In this document: one piece after another, positions 7,924 to 37,359 of the stretch | Layout of the letters: the number at the start of each line of letters is the position of its first letter | Position numbering within the stretch: the first letter of the stretch is position 1 | Origin: Promethearchaeia archaeon | Lineage (GTDB): Archaea > Asgardarchaeota > Lokiarchaeia > Sigyniarchaeales > SOKP01 | Direction of reading: 5' to 3' | Assembly (NCBI GenBank): GCA_029856125.1 | Contig: JAHQWJ010000148.1 | Location: 8,588 to 72,587 of the forward strand | Length of the DNA stretch: 64,000 nt | Position numbers and translations under genes: made by a program | Notes under the pieces: generated by a model | Told to the model about the DNA's origin: nothing | Seen by the model: the letters and a program-made list of their open reading frames with translations, nothing else | The model's database searches: none

Positions 7924-7928
7924 AAAAT

Positions 7929-9248: not shown

Positions 9249-9266
9249 AAGAGGTTTATTATAGAA

Positions 9267-10037: not shown

Positions 10038-10089
10038 AAAAAAATTATTTTTTATTTTAATTTTAAGAAAAAATCTATTTATTTCTTTA

Positions 10090-11349: not shown

Positions 11350-12754
11350 GTCCTGGATTCATTATCGCATTTGGATCCAAAAGCTTTTTTATTTTTTTGA
11401 TCAATTCGTTAGTAGCTGGTAATGTCTTTTCCTCATATACCTCATGAGCCCAAAGTGGAGCCTTATACATTACAACACCATCAATTGATTGAACTTCTTC
11501 ATGAATTTCCTTTAATACTTGGCGAGCAGATTCAATTTCCTCGGGATCGTCTTTATTAAAATTTATGTTAGTTCGAGCAACACAATAATGACCGCCAAAT
11601 AAAATTCGGGAGTAAAATTGCGGAGTACGTCCGTATTTTAGAGCTTTTTCTCTTGCTAGAGCGTAAAATTTTGCAATGTCTCGAGTTGAACAATAACTCC
11701 CAATCCATTGGCCCCCACCTCCCCTAGAGAAATTCCAGCACCCCCATAATTGAATTGGTATCGCATCAAGAAGAGTTGTATCAATTCCTTGGGGTTCAAT
11801 AAGCCCACCTTCTTTTAAGATGGCTTCAATTGCTTCGCATTGAGCTTCATGTTGTTTTTGGGTATAGGCTTGTGTAGTAATAATTCCTGCGAAATCTGGT
11901 AATTTTTTTTCTAAGGGATCTATAGGAATCTTATTTTCATTTGCAGCGAATGAGGATTGAAGCCACCCATAATTTTGAATTACAAGATCACATATACCTA
12001 AACCCACCTTAGAAAGCTTAAGCATAACTGGGACTCCATCATCCATAGTTCTCCCCATCACAACATAATTCCTTCGATATGGTAGTTTTGGCCATAATTT
12101 TATAGCCGCTTTAGTCACGATTCCTGTAGTGCCTTCCCAGCCAATGAACAAACCTGCTAAATCAGGTAATGGTTGCCTTCCATACCAGTAATCAGAAAGA
12201 CAACAAGAACCTACTTTCACTAATTCACCCGAACCTAAGACAGCTTCTAAACCATTAATGAATTCTGCTCCTGTTCCACCAAGCATTCCCAAATCAAACA
12301 TACCATAACATAAGCAAGAAGCTACTACCCCTGTTCCGGGTGGTGACCAAGTTACGCCCGCTCTTAAACCAGAATGGTGTTTTTCAAGATATCCTACTAA
12401 ATCGGCCCATGTAGTTCCCCCTTCGACTAAAGCATACATATCATCTTCATTTACTTCAATTATTCGATTCAGCCTTCTCAGGTCAACAACAATTCCTCCC
12501 TTTATTGGAGTAGCAGTAGAACCAAAGTTGATCCCCGAAACCCAAGGTACTAGTGGAATTTTGTGATTATTTGCAATTTTAACGATTTCTTGGACTTCTT
12601 CTGCTGAATTTGGCATTATTACAATATCACATATTCCTTCTGGTTCAGCCGTGATAAAATCGTAGTGATAGAGAAATGTTATTTCAGGTTGATCTGAAAC
12701 GTATTTTTCTCCAACAACTTTTCCTAATTCATTAACTATTTCACTATTAATCAT
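11333..12754 (-). CDS. FAD-linked oxidase, GlcD / D-2-hydroxyacid dehydrogenase-like
   Basis: 473 aa. PCMH-type FAD-binding N-terminus ('IVIMPNSAEEVQEIVKIANNHKIPLVPWVSGINFG') and C-terminal 'LDPNAIMNPG'. Confidence 0.8.
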   Translation of the reverse strand: MINSEIVNELGKVVGEKYVSDQPEITFLYHYDFITAEPEGICDIVIMPNSAEEVQEIVKIANNHKIPLVPWVSGINFGSTATPIKGGIVVDLRRLNRIIEVNEDDMYALVEGGTTWADLVGYLEKHHSGLRAGVTWSPPGTGVVASCLCYGMFDLGMLGGTGAEFINGLEAVLGSGELVKVGSCCLSDYWYGRQPLPDLAGLFIGWEGTTGIVTKAAIKLWPKLPYRRNYVVMGRTMDDGVPVMLKLSKVGLGICDLVIQNYGWLQSSFAANENKIPIDPLEKKLPDFAGIITTQAYTQKQHEAQCEAIEAILKEGGLIEPQGIDTTLLDAIPIQLWGCWNFSRGGGGQWIGSYCSTRDIAKFYALAREKALKYGRTPQFYSRILFGGHYCVARTNINFNKDDPEEIESARQVLKEIHEEVQSIDGVVMYKAPLWAHEVYEEKTLPATNELIKKIKKLLDPNAIMNPGHGWGS

Positions 12755-19974: not shown

Positions 19975-20745
19975 TTATTCCAATATCTGATGAATATTAT
20001 CTTTTATTATTTGATAACTAGTTGATTTATCGGATATGTCGATTATTGGTTTACCTTCTAAATCAAATTCTGTTAAGATTTCATCCTCGGGAATCGAAGC
20101 AATCGCAGTTAGATCGTACTCTTTAAGCTTATCTGTGATTTTAGCAATATCTCCTTTAACTCTATTAATAATAACCCCGATTTTTCTGTAATTTGTAAAT
20201 TTTTTAGCACTTTGACTTATCGAATACGCCGTTTCTACGCTCCTAAGAGAAATATCTGTTACGATTATTACGTAATCTACAGATTTTATTACCATCCTAT
20301 TAATTTGTTCGAGACCGGCCTCACAATCAATCAATACGATATCAAAATCCTGTGAAATAGATTCAATAACTTTTCGTAGAAGAGCGTTGGAAGGGCAAAA
20401 GCAACCTGGCCCTTCAGGTTGACCAATTGAAAACAAGCTAAAATCTTTACTTTCCTTTATGGCGCTATAGACCTTAAAATCTATTGACTCTGCTATCGCT
20501 TGAATATTTTCCTTTTTACTAATTGTGTTATCAATTAGATCTGCTCTTATCTTTTCGAGACTTTCCTCCGGGACTAATTTAACCATTTTACTGAGGTGTG
20601 GATGGGTTGGATCCGCATCAATCAATAATAATTTAAACTTATAGGATGTAGAAATAGCTTTAGCAATAAGAGTAGTTATAATTGTTTTACCGACGCCTCC
20701 TTTTCCGGTGATAGCAATTATAAGCGGGGTTTTTTTCAGTTCCAT
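19975..20745 (-). CDS. CooC/AcsF-like MinD-family ATPase (putative metallocentre maturation factor)
   Basis: 256 aa with the deviant Walker A 'GKGGVGKT' and the CooC-type 'GPGCFCP' C-x-C motif. Confidence 0.7.
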   Translation of the reverse strand: MELKKTPLIIAITGKGGVGKTIITTLIAKAISTSYKFKLLLIDADPTHPHLSKMVKLVPEESLEKIRADLIDNTISKKENIQAIAESIDFKVYSAIKESKDFSLFSIGQPEGPGCFCPSNALLRKVIESISQDFDIVLIDCEAGLEQINRMVIKSVDYVIIVTDISLRSVETAYSISQSAKKFTNYRKIGVIINRVKGDIAKITDKLKEYDLTAIASIPEDEILTEFDLEGKPIIDISDKSTSYQIIKDNIHQILE

Positions 20746-20776
20746 TATTTGATTCCATCTATTCGCTATTTTTAAT

Positions 20777-21538
20777 TTAAATCTCTTCTCGAGAAACTAA
20801 CACTTGTTTGATTTTGAAGCATTCTTCTCTATACGGGCATATTTCACAGCCCCAATCGTAATCACAATCAATTCTTTTTTTCCATTCGTCTATTTTCTTT
20901 TTCCATTTTTCTTTTAACTTAGAATGGATATCTGCCGAATGCACAATAAATTGCTCAATAGAGTCTTGATAAGAATTAATGAAAATGATTTCTACTGATT
21001 TAATTAAACCTTTAAATTTTTGTTGATACAGAGAAATTATCGCATTTCCTAAGAATTCGAACGAAAAGCCTTTCTCTAGAGCTGAAGTATTAATTCTACA
21101 CCAAAACCTACGAGGAATTGTTCGAATTGAAAACCCTTCGATACCATTTGAGATGAAATTCAAATGTCTTAACTCATCGATTTCCTTATCAGTACCTTTA
21201 TTGATTCCAATTAATACCATCATTCCAAAATCTATGTTCGTCTCTCCTATCGCATTTATTTCTCTCCCTAATAATGTTATTTTTCCGTGCTCAACTAATC
21301 GAGCGTCGCTAATTGGAAATATAATTGAAAATGATTTTCTATTGACCCCACCAAGCTCTAAACCAGTTTCCTCTCCAAGGATTATTTCTTTGTGGCTATT
21401 TAATCCTACTTTTATGTTAGAATTATGAACTAAATTGATCTGGTTTGAGTCACATCGATAGGAAAATAAGGTTTTTCCACGATTCTGCTCTTGTTCTAAG
21501 AAATCTCTTATCTTTTCAAGAATAACTTTATTTTCCAT
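20777..21538 (-). CDS. Hypothetical protein with C-terminal Cys cluster; possibly related to part of acetyl-CoA synthase (CdhC/AcsB)
   Basis: 253 aa. 'GLELGGVNRKSF', 'IEGFSIRTIPRRFWCRINTSALEKGFSFEFLGNAI' and 'VEIIFIN' resemble, from memory only, CdhC/AcsB blocks. The C-terminus reads 'CDYDWGCEICPYREEC'. Confidence 0.4.
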   Translation of the reverse strand: MENKVILEKIRDFLEQEQNRGKTLFSYRCDSNQINLVHNSNIKVGLNSHKEIILGEETGLELGGVNRKSFSIIFPISDARLVEHGKITLLGREINAIGETNIDFGMMVLIGINKGTDKEIDELRHLNFISNGIEGFSIRTIPRRFWCRINTSALEKGFSFEFLGNAIISLYQQKFKGLIKSVEIIFINSYQDSIEQFIVHSADIHSKLKEKWKKKIDEWKKRIDCDYDWGCEICPYREECFKIKQVLVSREEI

Positions 21539-23981: not shown

Positions 23982-25427
23982 ATGAATGAAACAATTGCTT
24001 TTACTGAAACTGAAGTAACAAGACATTCAAAAAAGACATTCCTTTCTAATGCTTCCAGTCTCCTTTGCTCTACTTTAATCGGTTCTATTCAAGGATTTAC
24101 ACTTGTCTATTATGAAACTGTTATTGGATTAAATGTGTGGTTAGTCTTTGTCGCCATGAGTATCTTTCTAGTATATAACGGAATTAACGACCCTATTTTT
24201 GGTTTTTTAATCGATCGGAATTTGAGATTTACGAGAAAATGGGGAAGACGATTTCCATGGATCGCCATAGGCATCATCCCTTGGGCCTTTTCTGTTTTCC
24301 TTCACTTCTCAGCCCCAATTATCGCTACTCCTGCTAATCCTTGGCCTGCTTTTTGGTGGTTATTATTAACATTAGTTTTACTCGACACCTTTGGCACCAT
24401 TGTGAATATTAATTACAAGGCACTTCAAATGGAAAAATTTCGGACGGAGTACGAGCGTAGAAGATTCACAAAATATTATGTACCTCTCGACATTGCAGCA
24501 ATGGTCCTCGGGATGTTATTACCTACCCTTTTCCTTGATAACGAGGCACCAAAAGCCATTCAATTAGCCAATTATTCTTTAATGGGAATAGTCGTCGCCA
24601 TAGTAGCTCTTCTTTTTGGTATTTTGTCTCTTTATGGTAACCGTGAGGATAAAATAATGATTGATCGGCATTTTTCACCCGAGTCTGTGAAGCGAATGAA
24701 TTTTTTTAAAGCCTTCAAAGAAGCTGTAAAATCGAAAACTTTCATGGTATATTTTATCTTTGGAACGTGTCTTGGAATTCAAATAAGCCTTGTAGTAGTA
24801 AATGTGTATTATCTAACGACTTATGTGTTAAATGCTGGTACCTTAACATATTTTCTTGTTTTAGGTTTATATCTCATAGGTACCTTGGTATCTATTCCTA
24901 TCTGGCTCAGGTATATCAAGAAAATAAATAATAACAAGAAGGCGCTAGTGGTTGCGGGTCTCGCATCGTGTGCTGCGTTATTTCCATTAACATTCTTTTA
25001 TGGACCTACTGATTTAATGATCATGGCATTCATTCTCGGACTCGCCCAAGGAGGCTTAAACTCATACGTATATACTATTATCGGTCCGAGCGTGACTGAG
25101 GATGTGATTGTTAAGATGGGGAGAAATCAAAAAGGAGTTCTCTTCGGGATTTCTGCGTTGCTTGGACGGCTTGTAGCATCTATTGACGAGTTAATTATTG
25201 CTGTCATTCATGATATTTCAGGATTCCTTCCCGGATATCCTTCTTATAAAGAATTGGCTGCCGTGGTTTTTGACATGACCCGTATTCAAATAGGAATCCG
25301 CCTTCTTCAGGGAGTCATTCCAGCGTATATTTTGCTCATAGGAATTCTGATTATCTGGTTGTATTTCCCTCTAACTCAAGAAAAGATATTAAGTAATAAA
25401 GCTAAGATGGAAGAACTCGGATTTTAA
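23982..25427 (+). CDS. Glycoside-pentoside-hexuronide (GPH):cation symporter-family MFS transporter
   Basis: 481 aa, about 12 helices, with a GPH-type loop 'NDPIFGFLIDR......WGRRFPW'. Confidence 0.7.
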   Translation: MNETIAFTETEVTRHSKKTFLSNASSLLCSTLIGSIQGFTLVYYETVIGLNVWLVFVAMSIFLVYNGINDPIFGFLIDRNLRFTRKWGRRFPWIAIGIIPWAFSVFLHFSAPIIATPANPWPAFWWLLLTLVLLDTFGTIVNINYKALQMEKFRTEYERRRFTKYYVPLDIAAMVLGMLLPTLFLDNEAPKAIQLANYSLMGIVVAIVALLFGILSLYGNREDKIMIDRHFSPESVKRMNFFKAFKEAVKSKTFMVYFIFGTCLGIQISLVVVNVYYLTTYVLNAGTLTYFLVLGLYLIGTLVSIPIWLRYIKKINNNKKALVVAGLASCAALFPLTFFYGPTDLMIMAFILGLAQGGLNSYVYTIIGPSVTEDVIVKMGRNQKGVLFGISALLGRLVASIDELIIAVIHDISGFLPGYPSYKELAAVVFDMTRIQIGIRLLQGVIPAYILLIGILIIWLYFPLTQEKILSNKAKMEELGF

Positions 25428-25551: not shown

Positions 25552-26901
25552 GTGATTTGTATAACGAGTGAAGAAAACAAGCAAAAACATGGTAGAATCC
25601 AAGTGAGAAGAATTGGAAAACGAAATATTTTGTCTATTCTCTTCTTAGGAACCGCAGGACAAATAGCCTGGGTTGTTGAAAATAGCTGGTTTAATACATT
25701 TGTCTTCGATCGGATTACTACCGATCCAACACCCGTTGCGTTGATGGTAGCAGTAAGTGCTATAACTGCTACAATTACCACAATTATAATGGGTATTCTT
25801 AGCGATCGAACTTCTGGGAAATGGGGTAAAAGAAAACCATTCATTGTCTTTGGATATATTCTTTGGGGTATAATAACTGCAATCTATCCTATGGTCGAAT
25901 GGATTCAAACGATTGGGGTTGCTATTTTAATAGTAATCATAACCGATGCAGTCATGACCTTTTTTGGCTCAACCGCAAACGATGCTGCATACAATGCTTG
26001 GTTAACTGATATAGGACATTCGAGTAATCGTAATCGAATACAAAGTATTAATAATATAACTGTATATGTTGCAGCCATATCTTCACTTGTTCTAGCGGGA
26101 GTGATTATTGATATCTTCGGGTATTTCGTGTTTTTCTATATTTTAGGTGGAGTAGTAACTATTGCTGGTTTGATTGCTACGTTTTTAATTGAATCCACTC
26201 CAATAAAAAAAGAAGATATTAAATTTGAAAAATCTTTTCTTAAAGAATTTGCAGATCTCATAAATCCGAAAATTCTGAAAGAAAATCGGACTCTTTTTTT
26301 GCTGTTTCTTAGCATGGCTTTAGGAAGTATAGGAGCGAATGTCTACGGACCATACCTCTTTATATTCATGGAACATTACATTGGTTTCTCAAAAACGGAA
26401 CTAAGTATTTTTGGGGCGCTTTTCTTGCTTCTCACAGTAGTTATATTAGTTATTGCAGGGATCTATAGTCATCGAGTTAATCGCAAGACTTTAGTCATAA
26501 TTGGCTCAATCTTGGGGGCAATGCTAACGATTTTATTAGGGTTAACATCATTATTAGTTGGAGGAAATAGTTCTCTAGCAGTATTGACATTCCTCCTTTA
26601 TTTTGTGGCAACTATACCATCATTACTTTCTTCAGTTGCGTTTGGAGGGTGGCTTTTTGATAATTATCCTGAAGGAAATATTGGAAAATTTCAAGGTATC
26701 CGCATGATTTTCATGGTACTGATACCTATGGTGTTAGGACCTCCGATTGGATCGGCTATTATCAGCACATTCGGAATCCCTATAGCTGATGGATACATTC
26801 CTACACCCGAGATATTCATTTTTGGAGGACTAATTTCCTTGTTGTCAGTGATTCCAATATTTTTTATTAGTAAATCTGAAGGACAAATAAACCTTGATTA
26901 G
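25552..26901 (+). CDS. MFS/GPH-like transporter
   Basis: 449 aa, multi-helix, with 'GILSDRTSGKWGKRKPF'. The start codon is uncertain (GTG at 25552 or an internal GTG). Confidence 0.65.
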   Translation: MICITSEENKQKHGRIQVRRIGKRNILSILFLGTAGQIAWVVENSWFNTFVFDRITTDPTPVALMVAVSAITATITTIIMGILSDRTSGKWGKRKPFIVFGYILWGIITAIYPMVEWIQTIGVAILIVIITDAVMTFFGSTANDAAYNAWLTDIGHSSNRNRIQSINNITVYVAAISSLVLAGVIIDIFGYFVFFYILGGVVTIAGLIATFLIESTPIKKEDIKFEKSFLKEFADLINPKILKENRTLFLLFLSMALGSIGANVYGPYLFIFMEHYIGFSKTELSIFGALFLLLTVVILVIAGIYSHRVNRKTLVIIGSILGAMLTILLGLTSLLVGGNSSLAVLTFLLYFVATIPSLLSSVAFGGWLFDNYPEGNIGKFQGIRMIFMVLIPMVLGPPIGSAIISTFGIPIADGYIPTPEIFIFGGLISLLSVIPIFFISKSEGQINLD

Positions 26902-27100: not shown

Positions 27101-27168
27101 AAGTAAATTTTTAACACTTCGAACCATATAATTTATTAATTTTTATTAGATATTAGCAAGGTAAAATT
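27101..27168 (+). promoter_or_regulatory. Conserved upstream region shared with the paralog at 29767-29834 (contains TATA-like 'AAATTTTTAA')
   Basis: By hand alignment, 39 of the first 49 positions are identical to 29767-29815. Confidence 0.35.
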
Positions 27169-28425
27169 ATGGGTAATAAAGAAGAAAATGAATCATCGTC
27201 CAAGAAGATTTTGAAAGAAACAAAAGAAAATGGCGAAATAGCCATGCGAGAGAAGGAAGCTAAAGTTAGAGGGCTTTACGTGAAGATGTTGGAAGATGCC
27301 GCGAAGTATGCAGTGCAGTATGAGTTCTACGCAGAGGACATGAAGGATTTCCACGAAGTAGTGCAATGGAAGTTCGGTCCTATCAGAGGATATCAAGTAT
27401 TCGACGAAACAGAGTATTCATTCAAAATCGACGAAGAGGCTGAAGATCCGACCTTAATACTGGGGTGCAAGGATCTTGATCTGGCCTACCAGTTCCTCAA
27501 CGACGAAATCAGTCATTGGCCGGCCCTTCTGGGGACTAAGTTCTTGGTTGGCACAAAGGGCCCCGACGGGACTTATAAGGAAAAGAGAATTGGAAAGTTA
27601 ACTGGTTTTGCCCCCGGCAATGCCCCTAGGTTGAGTACCGCAAAAGAGAATGCCCCCCCCGAGCAAAAAAGATTGTCTTCTCGTCTGTTGAGAATACCCG
27701 TGTTTCGGCCGATCATGGAGCGAACCACAGATCCCGAGAACTCGAACGACGTTCGCATTCCAATCAATGAGTCCTTGGGTACATATGAGAACCAGTCGAT
27801 ACCGCTCGCAGTTCTCGAATACTTCATAAACAAGGCAAGTGACGTCTATATCTTCAATATGTGCCCGTGTCGCTCGCTCGCCAATTGCGAGAATTATGAC
27901 CATTCCATCGGATGCATGGCCCTGGGTAAGGGGGCCCTGAGGATGAATACCTTTGGAAGGATCGGTACCAAAGAAGAGGCATTGGAACGATCGCGACGTG
28001 CTGTTGCTGCTGGTCTCCTGCCTTCTCTGGGGAGAGTCAAATCCGATACGATCGTCTATAGGGCTTTGCCTGAACAGGGCGATCTGATGCATATTTGCTT
28101 CTGTTGCCCCTGTTGCTGTGTCGAGGGCTCTGGAAAGGACTCGCCAAGGTATCTAAGGCTGTGGCATCAGAAGATGGAGGGTGTGTCCGTCACGGTCAAT
28201 GAGGATCTCTGTAATGGATGCGAGCTATGCCTCGAGGTGTGCATATACGGTGGAATGGAGGTCATCGACCACATAGCCGTGATTGACCGGGAGGGCAAGG
28301 ATCACTGCAGAGGCTGCGGAAGGTGCGAGAGGGTATGCCCCACTGGAGCGATAACCATCACCATCGAGGATGATGGTGTGGAGAGGATGATTGCTCGCAT
28401 AGAGTCCTCCGTCGACGTCAGCTAG
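27169..28425 (+). CDS. Cys-rich Fe-S protein ('CPCR', 'CFCCPCCC', C-terminal 2x[4Fe-4S] ferredoxin domain); G+C-rich mosaic copy
   Basis: 418 aa, co-linear with 29835-31007. Motifs: 'CNGCELCLEVC' and 'CRGCGRCERVCP'. The gene body is markedly richer in G+C than the rest of the window. Confidence 0.7.
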   Translation: MGNKEENESSSKKILKETKENGEIAMREKEAKVRGLYVKMLEDAAKYAVQYEFYAEDMKDFHEVVQWKFGPIRGYQVFDETEYSFKIDEEAEDPTLILGCKDLDLAYQFLNDEISHWPALLGTKFLVGTKGPDGTYKEKRIGKLTGFAPGNAPRLSTAKENAPPEQKRLSSRLLRIPVFRPIMERTTDPENSNDVRIPINESLGTYENQSIPLAVLEYFINKASDVYIFNMCPCRSLANCENYDHSIGCMALGKGALRMNTFGRIGTKEEALERSRRAVAAGLLPSLGRVKSDTIVYRALPEQGDLMHICFCCPCCCVEGSGKDSPRYLRLWHQKMEGVSVTVNEDLCNGCELCLEVCIYGGMEVIDHIAVIDREGKDHCRGCGRCERVCPTGAITITIEDDGVERMIARIESSVDVS

Positions 28426-28500
28426 GGGGATGCCAGGTTGTCATAAAGCATATAAATGCTATATATAATAGGAATAGTTTTTAAGAAAAATGATGTGAAT

Positions 28501-29631
28501 TTATGGTTCAAATTTTTCTACGATTTTGGAAACTTTCTTTAACCTTCTCCCATCTCCAATGCACAATTCGTCGCTTATTCCGAGGATTAGGTTTGGAGAA
28601 AATAAGTCAAGGACTTTTTTTGTCAGGTCTATTAATCTCGATTCTTTAAATTCTCGCAAGAATAAGGTAGCTGGAATTCCGTCGACGAGTATTTTTCCAG
28701 AATCCCCTAATGCTCTTGCAATATCTTCCAAAGGCACATCTCCTAGAGGTGGTGGGGTTAACGCCTCGTATCCGTCAAAAGACATCGTGGAGAGATAGGG
28801 TAATAACTGTTTGAAAGAACCATCAATGTGAATGAAGGCAAACTTCCTTGCGTCGTGTAGTAATTTAACGCGGGTTTCATAATAATCCAAGAGGTATTTT
28901 TCAAAATATGGCGGAGACGATAAATTATGATCAATATTTTCTCCAAAATTTACGAGTTTTAAAGGGGATTTTGTTATCACTCGTTTATACTTCTTTAGAT
29001 CAATGGATTCGAGATGGTGAAAGAAATCCTCCATTTCATGCTTGTATTTTCGTAAAAAGATTATCGTTCTTTCAAAGCCGAGATAATTAAGAACGCATTT
29101 CATGTAAGGACTTCGAAAATAATAGCTTGTTGGGATGCCAAAACCTTCCATTTCCTTTTTAGCTTTCTCGTACATGACATTTGAGAAATTAAATTCAGTT
29201 TGATCCTCGAGATACATCATTACTTTAAGATCCTTAATTTTTTTGACGGGAAAATCAATTATTCGAGTATCTTTTTCAACATGAGATACTTCCCCTACCG
29301 GTGTTATCATTTTTATAAGATATGTTTTGTAGTTCAATCGTTTCCTAATTGTTTTTATTTGGTGATTCGGTTTTCTAGTTTCGTGAAATAAAGGATAACC
29401 AAAAGTTTCTTGAGGATATCGAATTGAACCATTAATGTCCTTATAGATTTCCTTGATATTTTTTCCGATGTACTCTTTTGGCACATATTTTTCAACGGCA
29501 GGGTATTTTTCGGGAGTAAGTGATTGAATTCTATTACTATTATACCAATACATTATTCGAGGTTGCCATACAATCCCATCGATGGATTCGTGTGCGAATG
29601 TCCGCAAAATTAATTTGGCAAAATCAATCAC
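28501..29631 (-). CDS. Uroporphyrinogen-decarboxylase (URO-D/MtaA)-fold family protein, divergent
   Basis: 376 aa. The C-terminal half 'FIHIDGSFKQLLPYL....DGYEALTPPPLGDV.LEDI....G..ILVDGIPATLF' resembles URO-D-family barrels. No H-x-C zinc site was seen. Confidence 0.4.
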   Translation of the reverse strand: MIDFAKLILRTFAHESIDGIVWQPRIMYWYNSNRIQSLTPEKYPAVEKYVPKEYIGKNIKEIYKDINGSIRYPQETFGYPLFHETRKPNHQIKTIRKRLNYKTYLIKMITPVGEVSHVEKDTRIIDFPVKKIKDLKVMMYLEDQTEFNFSNVMYEKAKKEMEGFGIPTSYYFRSPYMKCVLNYLGFERTIIFLRKYKHEMEDFFHHLESIDLKKYKRVITKSPLKLVNFGENIDHNLSSPPYFEKYLLDYYETRVKLLHDARKFAFIHIDGSFKQLLPYLSTMSFDGYEALTPPPLGDVPLEDIARALGDSGKILVDGIPATLFLREFKESRLIDLTKKVLDLFSPNLILGISDELCIGDGRRLKKVSKIVEKFEP

Positions 29632-29766
29632 TTTAGCAAATTAGGACCGGATAGAATATAAAGTTACTTTATAAGGATACTGTATTTTTATTTTTGAACC
29701 TTTGATTTTCTGGAAATTATTCGCTCTAACTCAAGAAATCTTTTTGAAGTAAAACCAAGTCTGAAG

Positions 29767-29834
29767 AATTAAATTTATAATATTTCACCTCATATTATTT
29801 ATTAATTTTAATTAGGAAATATTAAAGTGGGAAA
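29767..29834 (+). promoter_or_regulatory. Conserved upstream region shared with 27101-27168 (TATA-like 'AAATTTATAA')
   Basis: See 27101-27168. Confidence 0.35.
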
Positions 29835-31007
29835 ATGGTAGAAAATAAAGCTGAAATTGAATCATTGTTTAAAAATATGCTAAAAGAAACTGAAAAAAAC
29901 GCTCCAAAAGACGCGATTTATCAGGAGGACATTAAAACTATCGGAACGCTTAAAGTCCAGTGGAAGATTTGTGGTATTTTGGGATATCAAATCTTCGAGC
30001 AAGATAAAGTCTCCTACAAATTTGGAGAAAAATTAGAAAAGCCAGATATATCGTTAGTTATTAGAGATAGCGAGATATCACTCACTTTCTTAAAGGGAGA
30101 ACTCTTTGAATTTGATTACGGCCCGGCTTATGGCGGTAATTTTAAAATCAATCAAACTATCGGATGGAAAGAGATTGAAAAAGAAACGGGTAAAAAAAAT
30201 GCTAGGATAAATAAACCTTTCCTGACAGCCCGATTTAACAAAGAAAAAGAATACCATCCTTATGTCTTATCAAAAATACCTATTTTTAGAAAACTTGTAA
30301 CACAACGAGTATCAGAAGATGATTTTGGAGCATTTATACCTATCAATAAAGCTCTTGGAACATATGAAAGTCAAATCATTCCTCTCAAGGTTTTTAAACA
30401 TTTTATTGATAAAGCGAGTAATATTGTCAAGATGAATGACTGTCCTTGTAGAACATACCATGAATGTAAAGATCACAATCGTGATCTAGGATGTATGCAC
30501 ATGGGTAATGATACGTTAAATTTCCCTTCACCCCATTTCAGGAGTAAAGTTATTTCGAAGGAGGAAGCCTTAGAACATGTTAGACTTTGCATTGAGGACG
30601 GTTTAATTCCATTACTCGGTAGAGTAATGGATGAAGCTGAGGGGTTTGGAGTTCCAGATACGGGACATTTCTTATCAATGTGTTTTTGCTGTCCTTGTTG
30701 CTGTATAGATGGTACTATCGTACAAAATGCCTCAAAAGGTCTAACTACGATTTTTAAAAGGATGGAGGGTATCACTGTGAAAGTTGACGAAGACCTTTGT
30801 GTTGGTTGTGAAGAATGTTTCGAGGTTTGTGTCTTTAATGGGATGGAAATGATTGATAACAAGGCTGTAGTGAACCAGGACAACTGCTTAGGCTGTGGCA
30901 GATGTGAAACCACTTGTCCTAACGAAGCCATCTCTATAACTATTACAGATCTTAGTTACGTTGATAATTTGATTAAAAAATTAGAAGCCCATGTTGATGT
31001 TACCTAA
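29835..31007 (+). CDS. Cys-rich Fe-S protein ('CPCR', 'CFCCPCCC', 2x[4Fe-4S] ferredoxin domain); AT-rich native copy
   Basis: 390 aa with 'CVGCEECFEVC' and 'CLGCGRCETTCP'. The N-terminal ~130 aa look SCP2-like ('KPDISLVIRDSEISLTFLKGEL'). Confidence 0.7.
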   Translation: MVENKAEIESLFKNMLKETEKNAPKDAIYQEDIKTIGTLKVQWKICGILGYQIFEQDKVSYKFGEKLEKPDISLVIRDSEISLTFLKGELFEFDYGPAYGGNFKINQTIGWKEIEKETGKKNARINKPFLTARFNKEKEYHPYVLSKIPIFRKLVTQRVSEDDFGAFIPINKALGTYESQIIPLKVFKHFIDKASNIVKMNDCPCRTYHECKDHNRDLGCMHMGNDTLNFPSPHFRSKVISKEEALEHVRLCIEDGLIPLLGRVMDEAEGFGVPDTGHFLSMCFCCPCCCIDGTIVQNASKGLTTIFKRMEGITVKVDEDLCVGCEECFEVCVFNGMEMIDNKAVVNQDNCLGCGRCETTCPNEAISITITDLSYVDNLIKKLEAHVDVT

Positions 31008-31161: not shown

Positions 31162-31584
31162 ATGATCTCAATTCAAAAAGGGGAGGATTTGCTCTCAATT
31201 TCCTTAAGCACCATCTTAAACCATAGGAAAGACGAGCCCGAATTTCAAAAACTTGTTATCGATTGGAACAAGAAGATTCTAATTGATATTGAAGATTTCT
31301 ATCCACTTGAAATTATATTTCATCGCAACGAGATTAAATTTAAAGTAAACGATATCGATAAAAAAGTAGATCTTAAAGTTAAAATGAACATTTACACCCT
31401 TTTAGATTTGGCTTACAGAAGACTAAACCCTGTAAAAGCCGTTTTTCAGCGTAAATTAAGATTTAAGGGATTGTTGAAATTTAGAATTTTATTAAAATTT
31501 ATGAACATTTTTCTGAAAAGCATGCAAATGGTTGCTTCAGACCCTAACAATAAATATTACGAATTAAATAAAGATATTAGGTAA
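31162..31584 (+). CDS. SCP2 (sterol-carrier-protein-2)-like small protein
   Basis: 140 aa with 'VDLKVKMNIYTLLDLAYRRLNPVKAVFQRKLRFKGLL', which fits the SCP2 pattern. Paralog of 34273-34695. Confidence 0.5.
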   Translation: MISIQKGEDLLSISLSTILNHRKDEPEFQKLVIDWNKKILIDIEDFYPLEIIFHRNEIKFKVNDIDKKVDLKVKMNIYTLLDLAYRRLNPVKAVFQRKLRFKGLLKFRILLKFMNIFLKSMQMVASDPNNKYYELNKDIR

Positions 31585-31602
31585 AATGGTGAAAGAAAAC
31601 AT

Positions 31603-33078
31603 ATGACTGCAACAAAGGAAAGAAATTTGTACGAGAAAATAAGGAAGGAGAATGTGTTTAAAAAATTAGGAGAAATATTTGGAAGTAAAAACGTCACAGA
31701 TAAATCTGTAGATTTATATCCTTACTCATACGATATGACCGAATGCGAAGCACACATGCCTGATTTTGTAGTTATTCCTGAAAATTCAGCTCAATTAATC
31801 GAACTAGTAAAATTTTGTAATCAAAATTCCATACCAATTGTACCTTACATATCTGGGAATAACGTTGGAGGTTTGACAATTCCAGAATACGGGGGTGTTG
31901 TCGTCGATTTTAGTAAGAAAATGAACAGAATTCTCCACATCAATGAAAATATGATGTATGCTCTCTTAGAGCCAGGAGTTACCTTCGGAGAATTAAAGAA
32001 ACAGTTAGACGAACATTATCCACATCTAAGATATAGTTACCCATTTGCTCCACCTTACGCAGGAGTGGTTGGAAATGTAATTTTGAGCGGTATGAATAAT
32101 CTTTCGTGTAAACTTGGTTCAATGGGAGATTCTATCAATGGACTAGAAGTTATAACTGCTGATGGCGAACTTATTCGAATTGGTTCTTGCTTTTATGGTA
32201 AGGATACCGCAGATGATGATTCTTGGTGGAGCAGATATCCGATGCCAGATTTAATGGGTTTATTTATCAATTGGCAAGGTATGACGGGTTTAGTAACCAA
32301 ATGCGCCGTACAGTTATGGCCAAATCCCCCTCTTAAGAAAACCTATCTTGGAATTGTTTTCGGCTTACCTGATATCGCACCGGTCATAAGAGAAGTTGGG
32401 AGGACTGAAATTGTTGATGACATTTCAGCAGTAAGTATTGAAGTTGTAAAAATGGCTGTAGAACTTCCAGAACCGGTAAAAATACCTGGTGAACCAGATT
32501 TTGCTGCACTTTTTTCTATTTCTGGGAAAACTGAAAGCCTTTTCAAAGCTAAGGAGGAATATTTAAAGCTAACTATAGAAAATTTGAAGAAAAAGGGCAT
32601 AAAAGTTCTTTTAGTTGATGCTGACGAGTTTACAAAGTTATTCAGTTTAAGAGTAAGATGCCATTTAGATCTACCAGCAGTCATTTTATCGTTAGTAGAA
32701 TATTCGGGGTTAACATGGTTTGGATCCTATGCTCCAACACATAAACTCGAAGATTTAATACCTCAAGTGAACGACCTGTTTATAAAATACAAAGTTCCTC
32801 CATTTATTTACATGAAAATAATGAAGCATTCTCATTATGGAATTTTTCGACCTATCCTTAGATATAATAAATACAAAGATGAGGAAAACATTCATAGCTT
32901 ACTAAACGAGATTGCAGAACTATGCATCGCCGAGGGCTGTATTCCTTATAAGACGCCTGCGTGGATGACGGAAAAAATGCGTGAGATAATCAATCCAGGT
33001 TGGCAAAAATTATTCGACAAAATTAAAAATTGCATTGATCCAAATAAAATATTTAATCCCGGAAGATGGAATACATGA
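31603..33078 (+). CDS. FAD-linked oxidase (PCMH/GlcD-type)
   Basis: 491 aa with 'FVVIPENSAQLIELVKFCNQNSIPIVPYISGNNVGG' and C-terminal 'IDPNKIFNPGRW'. Close paralog of 34706-36181. Confidence 0.75.
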   Translation: MTATKERNLYEKIRKENVFKKLGEIFGSKNVTDKSVDLYPYSYDMTECEAHMPDFVVIPENSAQLIELVKFCNQNSIPIVPYISGNNVGGLTIPEYGGVVVDFSKKMNRILHINENMMYALLEPGVTFGELKKQLDEHYPHLRYSYPFAPPYAGVVGNVILSGMNNLSCKLGSMGDSINGLEVITADGELIRIGSCFYGKDTADDDSWWSRYPMPDLMGLFINWQGMTGLVTKCAVQLWPNPPLKKTYLGIVFGLPDIAPVIREVGRTEIVDDISAVSIEVVKMAVELPEPVKIPGEPDFAALFSISGKTESLFKAKEEYLKLTIENLKKKGIKVLLVDADEFTKLFSLRVRCHLDLPAVILSLVEYSGLTWFGSYAPTHKLEDLIPQVNDLFIKYKVPPFIYMKIMKHSHYGIFRPILRYNKYKDEENIHSLLNEIAELCIAEGCIPYKTPAWMTEKMREIINPGWQKLFDKIKNCIDPNKIFNPGRWNT

Positions 33079-33138
33079 ATCATTATTAAGAATTTTTAAA
33101 AATTCTGTTAATTTATCCAAATAAAGGTGATACATTAA

Positions 33139-34170
33139 ATGATCGAAACAAATATAACAAAAATGTTTGGGATTAAACATCCTATATTTAGCGCTCCAAT
33201 GGGTCCCTTTTTTACCCGCGATTTAGCTCTAGCTGTCAGTGAAGCCGGGGGATTAGGAGTGTTATCAAACGTGAATATAGCTGGTACAGATCCCGTTAAG
33301 GAACATAAAGCAAGCCTTGAACACATGATTGAACATACTGATAAACCGTTCGGTCTTAATATCCTAACATCTCGGAATAATCCTGGAGTGAGACAAATGG
33401 TCAGATCATTACCAAGAATAGTCATGGGTAATGTAAAAATGCGCGATCAGTGTAAATATTGGCTGACTTCGGCAGGTTCTTCAAGAGTTCTCGCAGAATC
33501 GAAAAGTTTTATAGAATTAAGAGAGAATTCAGAAGTTAAACACTTTCACGTTGCTCCAGCTGTATGGTTGGCTCAGAAATGTATAGCTTCAAAAGTAGAT
33601 GGAATAGTGGTGACTGGTACTGAAGGTGGAGGTCATCAATCGTATGAGAGAGTTAGTACTCTTGTTCTACTACAACAGATTAATGAGAAATTCCCTGATT
33701 TGCCAAAGATTGCTTGTGGGGGTTTTGCTACTGGAGAGTCTTTAGCTGCAGCACTTTCGTTAGGTGCAGGAGCAGTAGCAATGGGATCAAGATTTATAGC
33801 TTCTAAGCAGAGCGAATTTCACGAAAAATACAAAGCGTTAATTCCCCCTGGAAATCCGCAAGATACAGGGCTCTATACTGGATCGTTCGGTCCTATTCGG
33901 TTGTATAAAAACGAATACGCATTATCGCATCCTGCGCCCAGTAGTAAAGAGGAAATGATCGCTTACGAAAACTCTATATCTCCAGAACAAAGAGCAAAAG
34001 ATATGGGTGCCTATGATAGGGTATACAATGGGGATATTAATACTGGAGCTGTTTTACTAGGTCAATCAATAGGAATTATTGATAGTATAGAGAATGTCAA
34101 TGATATTATTGAACGAATAATGAAAAACGCTGAAACTGCTATTAGAAGAAATAGTTCCATGTTAAAATAA
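33139..34170 (+). CDS. Nitronate monooxygenase / FabK-like FMN enoyl reductase family protein
   Basis: 343 aa with 'MFGIKHPIFSAPMGPF..DLALAVSEAGGLGVLS' and 'GTEGGGH'. Confidence 0.75.
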   Translation: MIETNITKMFGIKHPIFSAPMGPFFTRDLALAVSEAGGLGVLSNVNIAGTDPVKEHKASLEHMIEHTDKPFGLNILTSRNNPGVRQMVRSLPRIVMGNVKMRDQCKYWLTSAGSSRVLAESKSFIELRENSEVKHFHVAPAVWLAQKCIASKVDGIVVTGTEGGGHQSYERVSTLVLLQQINEKFPDLPKIACGGFATGESLAAALSLGAGAVAMGSRFIASKQSEFHEKYKALIPPGNPQDTGLYTGSFGPIRLYKNEYALSHPAPSSKEEMIAYENSISPEQRAKDMGAYDRVYNGDINTGAVLLGQSIGIIDSIENVNDIIERIMKNAETAIRRNSSMLK

Positions 34171-34272
34171 GACCAAATCTAAACTAAAAATAACCAATTT
34201 ATTCCTTTTTTTATAAATTGGGCAAAAGGTTAATTTGTTTTTAAAAAAAAAAACTAATATAAGTGAATTAAT

Positions 34273-34695
34273 ATGCTTAATATAGAATTCCCGGATGATT
34301 TAATTTCTATATCGTTGTATAATGTTTTCAGTTCGAGGAAGGACGATAGAAAATTTATAAAACACGCGAAAGATTGGAATACAAAAATAGTACTTCATAT
34401 CGAGCCTTTCTATCCCGTGACAGTAATCTTCGACGGTAGTAATATAAGGTTTGAAAGGAAAGAATATCCAAAACCAGACATGAAGGTTAAAATTCATATC
34501 AACACCATGCTTGATATCGCTAACGATAGGTTAAATCCTTTTTTTGCTATTGAAGAAAAAAAAATGGAAATTGAAGGATTAGGTGAAGATAGCGAAAAAA
34601 TTATGCGGTTTTTCAATATTTTTGTCTTATCTATGCAGATGGTAGCTCAAGAGCCTAATGTGAATTATTTTGAATTAAACAAGAATACCAGGTGA
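34273..34695 (+). CDS. SCP2-like small protein
   Basis: 140 aa, co-linear with 31162-31584 ('KPDMKVKIHINTMLDIANDRLNPFFAIEEKKMEIEGL'). Confidence 0.5.
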   Translation: MLNIEFPDDLISISLYNVFSSRKDDRKFIKHAKDWNTKIVLHIEPFYPVTVIFDGSNIRFERKEYPKPDMKVKIHINTMLDIANDRLNPFFAIEEKKMEIEGLGEDSEKIMRFFNIFVLSMQMVAQEPNVNYFELNKNTR

Positions 34696-34705
34696 TATAA
34701 CTCTA

Positions 34706-36181
34706 ATGACAGCAACAAAACAACGAAATGTGTTTGAAAAAATTTCAAAAGATAATGTTTATTCTAAATTAGTCGAGATTTTTGGTAGCGATTATGTTAC
34801 TGATAAAAATGTTGACTTGTACCCCTATTCTCAAGATATGACTGAGAACAAACCTCACATGCCCGATTTTGTGGTTATCCCTGAAAATAAAGAGCAATTA
34901 GTGGAACTAGTTAAGTTTTGTAACGAATATTCAGTTCCATTAGTTCCCTATACCACGGGAAATAATGTTGGAGGGCTTACAATCCCTGATTATGGCGGTA
35001 TTATTGTAGATTTTGGAAAAAGGATGAATAAAATCTTACATGTAGATGACAATATGATGTACGCCCTCTTAGAACCCGGTGTTACCTTTGGTCAACTTAA
35101 GAAACACCTAGATGAGAATTTCCCAAGTCTAAGATATAGCTACCCAAACGCGCCCCCTTACTCAGGTGTAGTTGGAAACGCCTTATTAAGCGGCATGACA
35201 AATTTGGGTGCAAAAATCGGCTCAATGGCAGATGGCATTAATGGTCTTGAGGTTATAACCTTTGATGGAACTGTATCTCGAATTGGATCGTGCTTCTACG
35301 GAAATGATAAATCAGAAGACGATAGCTGGTGGTGTAGATATCCGATGCCTGACCTTATGGGATTATTCGTCAATTGGCAAGGCATGACCGGCTTGATAAG
35401 CAAATGCGCCGTTCAATTATGGCCAAAAGAACCAATTGAAAAACCTCAGCTCGTTGTCTTTTTTGGGTTAACAGATTTAGGTCCTTTTTTGAGAGAGGTA
35501 GGTAGAGCAGATATTGTTAACGATGTTGCTGCATTTTCAGTGGAGGTTGCTAAAATGGAGGTTGGAATACCAGAACCCGTAAGATATCCTGGAGAACCTC
35601 TTTATACTGCCGTAATGCCGATGACGGCAAAAACTGAAAACCAAATGAATGCCAAATTAGAAATTCTTAACGATATAATTGAAAAGCTAAATAAAGAAGG
35701 AACTGATATTCATTTAATTGATTATAACGAGTTTGCTAAGCTTTTTGGTCTAAAAGCTCTCAATATTTACAACTTACCATCACAGATTCTTTCCTTACAC
35801 GAATATAGCGGACTTACGTGGTTTGGCGCCTATGCTCCCTCTCATAAATTTGAAGAATTAATTGAGAAAACAGATGCGTTGTATCATAAACATGGGGTAC
35901 CCCCGTTTAACTATCTTAAGATTATGAAAGGAGGTCATTATGGTATATTTAGACCTATCTTTCGGTTTAAGAAATTTACAGATCAAGACAAAATCGTTAA
36001 GTTATTGGAAGAAATAGCTGATGTTTGTATAGACTTAGGGTGTATACCTTATAAAACGCCATCGTGGTTGACTGCAAAATTGCGTAAGAAAATCAATCCA
36101 GGATGGATTAGTCTTTTTGAAAAGATAAAACATTGTATGGATCCTAATAATATATTTAATCCAGGAAGGTGGAACACATAA
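34706..36181 (+). CDS. FAD-linked oxidase (PCMH/GlcD-type)
   Basis: 491 aa, same length as and co-linear with 31603-33078. Confidence 0.75.
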   Translation: MTATKQRNVFEKISKDNVYSKLVEIFGSDYVTDKNVDLYPYSQDMTENKPHMPDFVVIPENKEQLVELVKFCNEYSVPLVPYTTGNNVGGLTIPDYGGIIVDFGKRMNKILHVDDNMMYALLEPGVTFGQLKKHLDENFPSLRYSYPNAPPYSGVVGNALLSGMTNLGAKIGSMADGINGLEVITFDGTVSRIGSCFYGNDKSEDDSWWCRYPMPDLMGLFVNWQGMTGLISKCAVQLWPKEPIEKPQLVVFFGLTDLGPFLREVGRADIVNDVAAFSVEVAKMEVGIPEPVRYPGEPLYTAVMPMTAKTENQMNAKLEILNDIIEKLNKEGTDIHLIDYNEFAKLFGLKALNIYNLPSQILSLHEYSGLTWFGAYAPSHKFEELIEKTDALYHKHGVPPFNYLKIMKGGHYGIFRPIFRFKKFTDQDKIVKLLEEIADVCIDLGCIPYKTPSWLTAKLRKKINPGWISLFEKIKHCMDPNNIFNPGRWNT

Positions 36182-37359
36182 TGGTTGAAATTAAAGAAGA
36201 TTTAATGGGAAAAGAAGTTTTGGAAATGGCATTTGATCGTTGTATCAAGTGCAGTACTTGTAAATATAGCTACAAGGATTTCGAAAAAATGTGCCCAAGT
36301 GGAGAAAAATTCCTATTCGAATCGTATTGGGCATCAGGCCGAATCAGAATAATACGAGGTGTTTTAAATGGCGATCTGGAGTGGACGGAGGATTTACTAG
36401 ATCCTATTTTTGCTTGTACAACTTGTGGCGCTTGTATGGACGCTTGTCAGGCACCCCACGCGGATTATATTGTCGAGATGATAGAAGCCCTAAGAGAATT
36501 AGCTGTAAAAAACATTGGACCAGCGGAAAACCAAAAATTCTTAGTTACCCGATGCGAAGACAGTTGTAATCCTTACGGCGATCCAAACTCAGATAACGCA
36601 GAGTTGAAAAAAGAGTACGACCTACCGGATAAAGCCGAATGGGTCTATTTTATAGGATGTACCTCAAACTACCGTCAAAAAAGCCTAAGAGATTCTACTC
36701 TGAGGTTTTTGAAAAAAGCGGGTATTGATTTTACATTAATAGACGAACATTGTTGTACAAGCCCTATGATTAGAACTGGTCAATTGAGCATTGTTGATGA
36801 ATATATGAAATATAATATCGATCAAATAAAAAAGGCTGGTGCGACTAAAGTAATCACCTCATGCGCAGGATGTTATAAAACTTTATCGAAAGATTTCGAG
36901 AGGTTTGTAAACGCATTAGAATTTGAAATCTACCATTCGCTCGAATTAGTGAAGAACCTCTTAGACGAGAAAAAGATAGAGTTTAAATTTGAATATAATA
37001 AAACCGTTACCTACCACGATCCGTGCCATTTAGGAAGACACATGGGGGTCTATGAGTTACCAAGAGAGATTTACAAACAGATACCCGGATTAAATTTAGT
37101 AGAAATGAAAAGAAATCGAAATTTTGCGTGGTGTTGTGGTGCAGGCGGCGGAGTGAAAATTGGTTATCCTGATTGGGCGTTAGAGGTTTCTAAAGATCGC
37201 TTAGAAGAAGCACAGGAAACCGGAGCAACGGTTATAACATCAACATGTCCATTCTGTAAAACTAACTTAAGCGACGCTAACGATAATTATAACTTTGATT
37301 TTGAAGTACTTGACCTAATGGAAATCATAGATCAATTGGATATTGAAATTGAGAAGTAA
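36181..37359 (+). CDS. (Fe-S)-binding CCG-domain oxidoreductase, GlcF/HdrD-like
   Basis: 'CIKCSTCKY...CP', 'CTTCGACMDAC', 'CCTS' and 'CCGAGGG'. The ATG at 36181 overlaps the upstream TAA (TAATG). Homolog of 10090-11349. Confidence 0.75.
   Translation: MVEIKEDLMGKEVLEMAFDRCIKCSTCKYSYKDFEKMCPSGEKFLFESYWASGRIRIIRGVLNGDLEWTEDLLDPIFACTTCGACMDACQAPHADYIVEMIEALRELAVKNIGPAENQKFLVTRCEDSCNPYGDPNSDNAELKKEYDLPDKAEWVYFIGCTSNYRQKSLRDSTLRFLKKAGIDFTLIDEHCCTSPMIRTGQLSIVDEYMKYNIDQIKKAGATKVITSCAGCYKTLSKDFERFVNALEFEIYHSLELVKNLLDEKKIEFKFEYNKTVTYHDPCHLGRHMGVYELPREIYKQIPGLNLVEMKRNRNFAWCCGAGGGVKIGYPDWALEVSKDRLEEAQETGATVITSTCPFCKTNLSDANDNYNFDFEVLDLMEIIDQLDIEIEK

Follow-up and report, generated by a model that had tools for sequence, protein, structure and literature searches.

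A predicted ferredoxin-coupled iron–sulfur protein superfamily with a ten-cysteine domain, and two of its SCP2-bearing paralogs in a Loki-type archaeon

Iron–sulfur (Fe-S) enzymes with unusual clusters, including Hdr, ACS/CODH, IspG/H and the double-cubane proteins, have repeatedly revealed new chemistry. In the catalytic subunit of ferredoxin:thioredoxin reductase (FTR), CPC-type motifs accompany a [4Fe-4S] cluster that lies next to reactive cysteines. The Loki-type Asgard archaea are the closest prokaryotic relatives of eukaryotes, and their energy and lipid metabolism is poorly understood. HdrB is described as using ten cysteines to hold two non-cubane clusters (Wagner et al. 2017, as cited in PMC13101534), and the SCP2 protein UbiT is described as working with the [4Fe-4S] proteins UbiU and UbiV on a hydrophobic substrate under anoxia, in O2-independent ubiquinone biosynthesis (bioRxiv 10.1101/587956). 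Here, we describe two genes, termed A and B, from a 64,000-nucleotide stretch of DNA (the window) of a Promethearchaeia archaeon, the products of which combine an SCP2-like domain, a domain with ten cysteines and a 2×[4Fe-4S] ferredoxin domain. We tentatively read these proteins as ferredoxin-coupled Fe-S oxidoreductases acting on imported hydrophobic compounds, a reading somewhat short of probable in which we infer everything beyond the architecture itself. Positions follow the numbering of the window; L-numbers denote loci and P-numbers individual family proteins.

An earlier note on this DNA had proposed that A and B are paralogs with an architecture unlike that of any characterized enzyme. 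Both open reading frames are real at the coordinates below, and their products are 39% identical over the whole length (~400 residues, E = 3e-78). The absence of a characterized relative is upheld for the central domain, which has no Pfam-A, NCBIfam, PDB-sequence or PDB-fold match. The features of the two genes are as follows.

27169–28425, + strand: paralog A, 418 residues, with SCP2-like, ten-Cys and 2×[4Fe-4S] ferredoxin domains; GC 50%, GC at third codon positions (GC3) 58%
Residues 1–25 of A, + strand: putative leader copied from the 5′ end of B, from 5′ similarity
27244–27663, + strand: SCP2-like N-terminal domain of A (~residues 26–165), from alignment to B, on which the fold was assigned
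27862–28119, + strand: ten-Cys core of A, C232-x-C234-R235-x4-C240-x8-C249 to C310-F-C-C-P-C-C-C317
28210–28341, + strand: two CxxCxxCxxxC(P) motifs of A, C348–P391
29835–31007, + strand: paralog B, 390 residues, architecture as in A; native composition, GC 35.5%
29835–30239, + strand: predicted SCP2-fold domain of B (~residues 1–135), from the AlphaFold model and Foldseek
30327–30764, + strand: central ten-Cys α/β domain of B (~residues 165–310), including the ‘IPIN’ element
30441–30494, + strand: first Cys motif of B, C203/C205/R206/C211/C220
30681–30704, + strand: CFCCPCCC string of B, C283, C285, C286, C288, C289 and C290
30798–30920, + strand: two CxxCxxCxxxC(P) motifs of B, C322–P362, followed by a 29-residue tail ending in HVDVT

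The sole part of A and B that is recognized by Pfam and NCBIfam is the C-terminal 2×[4Fe-4S] ferredoxin. Similarly, a phmmer search with B against PDB chains matches only this domain, the best matches being the polyferredoxins MvhB and FwdF. The AlphaFold2 model of B (pLDDT 82, pTM 0.71) comprises three parts: an SCP2-like part, a central part and the ferredoxin. The latter two domains make up a core in which 18 cysteines are invariant and which, judged from its sequence, almost certainly serves as an Fe-S module with several clusters.

The central domain carries the motif C-x-C-R-x4-C-x8-C ... C-x-C-C-x-C-C-C in both A and B, which contain the ‘CPCR....C........GC’ and ‘CFCCPCCC’ elements that had been picked out from the letters. 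In an alignment of 33 Asgard homologs, C203, C205, R206, C211, C220, C283, C285, C286 and C288–C290 (B numbering) are invariant, as are I170, N171 and P183 of the ‘IPIN..LGTYE.Q.IPL’ element, also claimed earlier and likewise present. Over 222 aligned domains with ~30% mutual identity, each of the ten cysteines is 97–100% conserved and R206 is 100% conserved; G224, A245, G256, L257 and an acidic residue at position 267 follow at 94–99%. Among 128 full-domain representatives, the exact CxCCxCCC string is found in 116 and CxCRx4C...GC in 112. The conservation of the ten cysteines is far beyond chance, and the string on whose persistence across homologs the earlier note had staked its claim is kept.

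Modeled alone from a 61-sequence alignment, the central domain has a core pLDDT above 90 over most blocks. The fold comparison covered PDB chains: Foldseek with the isolated model against 350,542 of these chains yields no neighbor (best E 0.83, TM ≤ 0.26). The central-domain profile has no match among PDB sequences, and Pfam gives nothing for this domain even at E ≤ 10, NCBIfam likewise giving none. On the predicted model, the fold of the ten-Cys domain has no relative among solved structures; the profile and structure searches proposed earlier match only the ferredoxin and SCP2 parts of these proteins. Selenocysteine variants, a mark of catalytic cysteines, were sought, and no in-frame stop occurs in any of ~150 genomic matches. 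No paper that mentions the motif was found in a literature search.

The C-terminal domain is a canonical 2×[4Fe-4S] ferredoxin, as first proposed: PF00037 and PF12837 match A and B with 42–47 bits against curated cutoffs of 21–25 (E ~1e-11 to 1e-12), and its eight cysteines are invariant in the 33-homolog alignment. The linker between the ten-Cys string and the first ferredoxin motif has a median length of 30 residues, and the tail after the second cluster motif is a constant 29–30 residues. The C-terminal ‘VDV[ST]’ ending had been described as conserved; the tail length is, but the ending itself is kept only in part (78 of 118 Asgard long forms and 50 of 129 others).

An SCP2-like pattern had also been claimed for the N-terminal region. 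The first ~135 residues of the B model match the AF1534 SCP2 structures 3cnu and 3bn8 (Foldseek probability 1.00, TM 0.47–0.49 on the target, 23–24% identity) and, in the same comparison of the predicted model, UbiJ-SCP2 (6h6p), so that the assignment is borne out despite the PF02036 (SCP2) profile having no match in the N-terminal 150 residues of A or B, even at E ≤ 10. At the level of the predicted fold, we regard the SCP2 assignment as right. At the bacterial-type loci L022 and L023, a triad is formed by a short family member, a distant member (the second type, described below) and a stand-alone SCP2 gene, which reinforces the assignment. The SCP2 module is thus tied to the core in two ways, fused to it in Asgard archaea and encoded next to it at these two loci.

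A and B belong to a much larger group. An exhaustive HMMER search with the central-domain profile over 1.84 billion representative proteins returns 389 clusters (50% identity) at E ≤ 1e-3 and 224 at E ≤ 1e-10; these ~390 clusters cover one subfamily alone. All family members derive from uncultured organisms. Most are 260–300 residues long and consist of the central domain and the ferredoxin without SCP2. The signature of the superfamily, CxC[R]x(4-16)Cx(5-14)C ... CxCCxCCC with a 2×[4Fe-4S] ferredoxin ~30 residues on, is found in A and B. Upon this constant core, the N terminus varies: it may be absent, an SCP2 domain, a probable tandem SCP2, an SDR/epimerase domain or a module resembling a winged helix-turn-helix (wHTH). 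The second type (at the metagenomic loci L022 and L023) is a 367–378-residue Fe-S protein encoded directly after a short form, with the signature CYCR...C...C ... ITREEA ... GL ... CNCCGCCCE plus ferredoxin behind a ~190-residue N-terminal module; this module has a weak wHTH likeness to TrmB and Rrf2 (E = 0.07–0.17, below significance). When compared with the first group by hhalign, the second type scores a probability of 98.9% (E = 1e-17). Extended forms of 540–560 residues have a long N-terminal extension that probably carries a second SCP2-like module, because P0245, one of these forms, has a weak match to the SCP2-like family Alkyl_sulf_C (E = 0.004) upstream of its SCP2 region. P0262 is a fusion of a PF01370 NAD-dependent epimerase/SDR domain, the ten-Cys domain and Fer4.

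The genome to which the window belongs (3.69 Mb) has at least 14 open reading frames with an intact signature, the second type counted, and SCP2 is present in A and B only. Across the phylum, the family occurs in 64 of 151 sampled genomes and in 47 of the 72 of high quality. The widespread member is the ~275-residue short form, which is mostly single-copy; close orthologs of A and B are confined to a few genomes. Tandem arrays of 6–7 copies within 11–20 kb are observed in some Loki-type genomes (L012, L013, L015, L018), and among the redox families of Loki-type Asgard archaea this is one of the more expanded. Bacterial metagenome-assembled genomes also carry members; their source names include Geothermincolia, and some of the contigs have sigma-70 and TetR genes. 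A maximum-likelihood tree built from 97 core sequences places the second type in a separate clade (100/99), whereas all SCP2-bearing, extended and array-embedded 285-residue forms constitute one clade (100/100) nested among short forms. The SCP2 fusion therefore has a single origin, within Asgard archaea. In the SCP2 clade, the A orthogroup branches off first and B lies deep inside; on this tree, A and B are old paralogs rather than products of local duplication.

Public annotation names homologs ‘UDP-glucose 4-epimerase’ (JGI), ‘DUF362’ or ‘indolepyruvate ferredoxin oxidoreductase subunit alpha’ (NCBI), and none of these labels holds. PF04015 (DUF362) is not matched, the Fe-S part of A, B and ten further members giving Fer4-clan families only; PF01370 is absent from A, B and the short forms alike; and the indolepyruvate model TIGR03336 scores 23–26 bits against a cutoff of 650.9, in the ferredoxin part only. 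The epimerase misnomer probably stems from rare fusions such as P0262 together with the adjacency of epimerase genes to members in Thor-type genomes (L021 and the loci of family f7).

As a mechanism, we propose that A and B are cytoplasmic Fe-S redox proteins. The superfamily to which they belong had not been curated before; its constant core is a ~130-residue predicted α/β domain (ten invariant cysteines, one invariant arginine and a conserved acidic residue) followed directly by the 2×[4Fe-4S] ferredoxin and a fixed 29-residue tail. The ferredoxin domain would exchange electrons with the low-potential ferredoxin pool and pass them on to one or two additional clusters coordinated by the ten cysteines, where a small molecule would be reduced or, less probably, oxidized. 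The SCP2 domain of A and B may hold a substrate of hydrophobic or amphiphilic character, for example an aglycone or lipid-like compound, that the neighboring GPH-type symporter would import, and the many paralogs would each be specialized for a substrate while also serving a fermentative archaeon as electron sinks. The analysis shows the architecture and its conservation, the size of the family, its gene neighborhoods and the lack of known homologs or matching folds; we infer that the ten cysteines bind clusters, which way the electrons flow, that the proteins catalyze rather than relay, and what class of substrate they use. The ten-Cys domain is the likely business end, because it has an invariant arginine after the first CxC, an acidic residue and a cysteine pattern unlike that of electron-transfer motifs. 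The variable N termini, the paralog expansion and the transporter and hydrolase settings favor enzymes that act on diverse imported compounds. The genes that make up the setting in the window are as follows.

23982–25427, + strand: GPH-family (MFS_2) symporter, a recurrent neighbor of family members, at least 8 loci
25552–26901, + strand: second MFS/GPH-like transporter, specific to this window
31162–34170, + strand: stand-alone SCP2, p-cresol-methylhydroxylase-like flavoprotein and NMO/FabK-like reductase, downstream of B

Orthologs or close homologs of the symporter gene at 23982–25427 adjoin family members at L004–L007, L009, L013, L014 and L028, and in the taxonomic family of the window the short form has a different MFS_2 gene nearby. 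A and B orthologs are kept together with the MFS gene in at least six genomes. The best NCBIfam models for the window symporter are the GPH symporter family and a glucuronide transporter, both scoring below cutoff. Interleaved with the arrays are genes for GH2, BNR/sialidase-like proteins, β-lactamase-fold and α/β-hydrolase esterases, Zn-ADH, ACAD-like proteins and further MFS transporters; the window also encodes a carboxylesterase. The recurrent partner is, by sequence assignment, a GPH-type MFS importer amid glycosidase and esterase genes. The L022 and L023 triads lie amid acyl-CoA ligase, ACAD, OYE-type reductase, SnoaL and AOR genes, and in one Asgard family the short form adjoins a UDP-sugar-dehydrogenase-like gene with an epimerase nearby.

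Several observations weigh against this reading. The SCP2 call stands on a predicted fold, without membership in the sequence family, and metal binding by the ten cysteines is putative; the data are compatible with the additional or unusual cluster that the earlier note suggested for the string. The ten-Cys domain has no flavin or nucleotide site, so that two-electron chemistry would fall to the cluster. A universal neighbor of the short form, sought over 22 loci, was not found, which makes a single common substrate class unlikely. Synteny of B with the genes at 31162–34170 is confined to close relatives (L004, L007); co-occurrence with SCP2 and flavoprotein genes, which the earlier note had proposed as a check, is thus found for B in those relatives but does not extend beyond them.

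The main rival explanation, unlikely in our estimate, is that these are pure electron-transfer proteins in which the ten cysteines accommodate a further pair of ordinary [4Fe-4S] clusters. The result would be a four-cluster, polyferredoxin-like wire serving PCMH-like flavoproteins, SDRs or hydrogenases, with N-terminal modules that only dock to partners or membranes. Such a role would fit the polyferredoxins MvhB and FwdF as the best PDB sequence matches of the C-terminal part, the adaptor-like variability of the N-terminal modules, the short form without a single conserved neighbor, and the position of B directly upstream of an SCP2 and PCMH-like flavoprotein pair that lacks the HdrD-like partner present at its duplicate. 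However, the cysteine spacing (CxC, CxCCxCCC) is unlike that of ferredoxin-type motifs, the predicted fold is not ferredoxin-like, and ten cysteines are two beyond the need of two cubane clusters. The invariant arginine beside CxC and the conserved acidic residue suggest a reactive site, and generic electron carriers do not typically expand into substrate-style paralogs beside transporters.

The flavoprotein module downstream of B is itself duplicated. The stretch 31162–37359 contains two copies of a stand-alone SCP2 gene with a flavoprotein gene, with p-cresol methylhydroxylase (PCMH) and eugenol oxidase as the closest matches of the flavoproteins (E = 1e-28). An HdrD/GlcF-like CCG protein follows the second copy only; the first copy follows B, which could be the electron partner of the first-copy flavoprotein. 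Upstream in the window, the region 6802–12754 encodes a 2-hydroxyacyl-CoA dehydratase pair (HGD-D ×2) with a BcrAD-type activator and, on the other strand, a third GlcD-like flavoprotein with a CCG protein; this region is dense in anaerobic redox catabolism.

Thiol/disulfide or cluster-plus-disulfide chemistry is improbable as an alternative to the proposed cluster-based reduction. In an FTR- or HdrB-like arrangement, some of the ten cysteines would bind a [4Fe-4S] or non-cubane cluster and adjacent ones would form a redox-active disulfide that reduces a disulfide or thiol-linked substrate. All ten cysteines are invariant, the vicinal ones (CC, CCC) are disulfide-prone, ‘CPCR’ resembles the CPC motifs of the FTR catalytic subunit, and HdrB likewise uses ten cysteines, for two non-cubane clusters. 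Nevertheless, no CCG (PF02754) or FTR Pfam match is obtained even at E ≤ 10, no fold match to Hdr or FTR structures is found, and the neighborhoods have no recurrent thioredoxin-like or CoM/CoB-type genes. Very improbable is a role as redox- or ligand-sensing regulators, in which an SCP2 or wHTH-like N-terminal module senses and the Fe-S core reports the redox state: such a role would explain one copy per catabolic locus, a regulator-like placement of members beside transporters and catabolic genes and the weak similarity of the second type to the wHTH families TrmB and Rrf2 (E = 0.07–0.17), but those wHTH matches are below significance, A and B have no DNA-binding domain, a 2×[4Fe-4S] ferredoxin is typical of electron transfer rather than sensing, and arrays of 6–7 adjacent copies are unlike regulators.

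A bolder version of the proposal, which we consider rather unlikely, is that the ten-Cys domain holds a new metallocofactor, a non-cubane or heterometal (possibly Ni) Fe-S cluster on a fold new to solved structures, matured by HypA/HypB- or CooC-type chaperones and catalyzing the ferredoxin-driven reduction of hydrophobic organics as electron sinks in Asgard archaea. The gene pair concerned in the window is as follows.

19975–21538, − strand: CooC-like ATPase (GPGCFCP motif) and 253-residue CdhC-middle-domain-like protein, beside the MFS-A-B cluster in relatives

In L004 and L007, and partly in L006, this pair directly adjoins the MFS-A-B cluster in divergent orientation; in the window, two genes are inserted between the pair and the cluster. 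At L028 (9253–10427), hypB (ENVGNLxCP motif) and hypA lie between a 387-residue SCP2 form and a 272-residue short form; at L025 (9196–10248), HypB-HypA follows a cluster of at least five family members; and at L015 (7434–7883) and L018 (9888–10337), the arrays enclose a gene for a 149-residue HypA that has the canonical MHE nickel motif and the two CxxC pairs. These are three or four independent juxtapositions among ~40 loci, with a chance expectation well below one. The CooC adjacency is limited to the small group that bears A and B, and the nickel association is a lead only. As a general rule, neither link holds: canonical hypA is not co-located in the 151-genome sample and array-type HypA is absent from the family of the window, and CooC-like orthologs in 19 related genomes are not beside members, bar one at a distance of 12 kb. 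Homology to the A-cluster domain of acetyl-CoA synthase (ACS), considered because of the cysteine spacing and the CooC/CdhC-like neighbors, was rejected, with an hhalign probability of 0.1% against the CdhC of the same genome and no Foldseek match.

Further features of these chaperone-like genes were observed. The CooC-like MinD-family ATPase, a putative Ni-insertion ATPase, is also present with its partner at L004 4672–6232 and L007 4518–6078. The similarity of the 253-residue partner to CdhC/ACS is limited to the middle domain, and this protein terminates in C-x5-C-x2-C-x5-C; a canonical CdhC is encoded elsewhere in the genome (contig C51). HypA/HypB genes within or flanked by arrays occur in three Asgard genomes and one bacterial-type cluster, and the Asgard HypA copies have a ~30-residue insertion between the zinc CxxC pairs.

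The earlier interpretation largely stands as regards an unrecognized Fe-S family and falls as regards a link to the gene that A and B bracket. The intervening gene is as follows.

28501–29631, − strand: divergent URO-D-family gene, 376 residues, between A and B; not conserved there

This antisense gene, described earlier as having a URO-D/MtaA fold, is real. PF01208 does not match the window protein itself at E ≤ 0.01 but is matched by 20 of the 22 homologs aligned (best E = 9e-13), and the putative assignment to a divergent URO-D family holds by transitive homology. When a profile of this URO-D-like clade was compared with PDB sequences, no solved URO-D or MtaA structure was found. The suggested co-occurrence with A and B is contradicted by their orthologs: in L004, L006 and L007, these are adjacent, ~300 bp apart, without URO-D, and in L005 only an MFS gene lies between them. 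The closest URO-D orthologs (82% and 73% identity) are found elsewhere, amid other URO-D paralogs, MFS genes and hydrolases, without the Fe-S paralogs. A functional link of A and B with this gene is rejected, since the gene is absent between their orthologs and its own orthologs reside in unrelated contexts. At L051 and L049, divergent URO-D-like genes occur in clusters of 2–3 paralogs with MFS transporters, esterases and a cellulase-family gene; no corrinoid protein is encoded nearby, and a methyltransferase role is not evident.

Superfamily membership, the GPH-type MFS partner and the foreign composition of A are additions to the earlier note. The genome has a GC content of 32.7%, and B and all of the neighbors are 29–39% GC; A, at 50% GC and 58% GC3, is the most GC-rich among 1,527 genome open reading frames of at least 900 nucleotides. 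Its orthologs are GC-rich as well (43–51%) in seven other AT-rich genomes (L004–L007, L013, L014, L017) and adjoin the transporter gene wherever that gene is present. Identity at four-fold sites falls in a similar range for A (61–89%), B (74–77%) and the MFS gene (70–82%). A single acquisition of A from a GC-richer donor by the common ancestor of the group, not yet ameliorated, would explain the pattern, because the orthologs are GC-rich and the synonymous divergence is like that of the neighbors. Upstream of A and B lies a shared element.

27101–27149, + strand: upstream element of A, 39 of 49 nucleotides identical to 29767–29815 of B
29767–29815, + strand: upstream element of B, the counterpart of 27101–27149

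The next-best 49-mer in the window scores 29 of 49 (mean 14.8, SD 3.3). The likeness runs on through the first ~22 codons, and thereafter A has its own version of the N-terminal helix. The segments 27101–27243 (A) and 29767–29900 (B) are diverged copies that both contain TTTATTAATTTT. By sequence, A looks like a foreign gene that sits under a copy of the putative promoter and leader of B, captured from it; the shared element argues for co-regulation of A and B.

The superfamily thus has a widespread and readily spotted signature of ten invariant cysteines and an arginine, without a curated model, with misleading database names and without a structural relative. The fused lipid carrier and the importers point to an unrecognized metabolism of hydrophobic or glycosidic compounds in anoxic sediments, and ferredoxin-driven reductions of such compounds, if true, would give a fermentative, syntrophic archaeon a useful outlet for electrons.

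Each of the known systems resembles A and B in part. The likeness to the ACS A-cluster (CdhC/AcsB) is superficial: four cysteines are followed by C-x-C ~65 residues on, and Ni chaperones lie near some members, but no homology to the C-terminal domain of CdhC (Cx2Cx8Cx9C...CGC) is detected (hhalign 0.1%). The FTR catalytic subunit has no profile or fold match here, and its spacing and domain size differ. The C-terminal 2×[4Fe-4S] domain is a standard member of the group that includes MvhB, FwdF and the ferredoxin domains of HdrA/RnfB, a likeness that covers only ~60 residues; nothing in these proteins corresponds to the ten-Cys or SCP2 domain.

Similar to A and B, the UbiT-UbiU-UbiV system pairs an SCP2 lipid-binding module with Fe-S proteins, and UbiT is the best NCBIfam model for the stand-alone SCP2 of the window, below cutoff. 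UbiU and UbiV, however, are unrelated proteins of the U32-peptidase family with four-Cys clusters, whereas here the SCP2 domain is fused and the context is not that of a quinone pathway. Apart from the UbiT-UbiU-UbiV work, a literature search on SCP2 and 4Fe-4S found just a GlcDEF-like benzene cluster, which is unrelated. Compared with the CCG proteins HdrB, GlcF and HdrD, the motif is CxCRx4Cx8C...CxCCxCCC rather than CxnCCGxmCxxC twice, and there is no sequence or fold similarity; PF02754 has no match on the central domain at E ≤ 10, and the true CCG proteins of the window score 1e-35 to 1e-44. What the CCG proteins share with A and B is the combination of a ten-Cys non-ferredoxin domain with a ferredoxin-type cluster domain. 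They partner FAD dehydrogenases of the GlcD/PCMH superfamily, and in the window, true CCG proteins are found by the duplicate flavoprotein.

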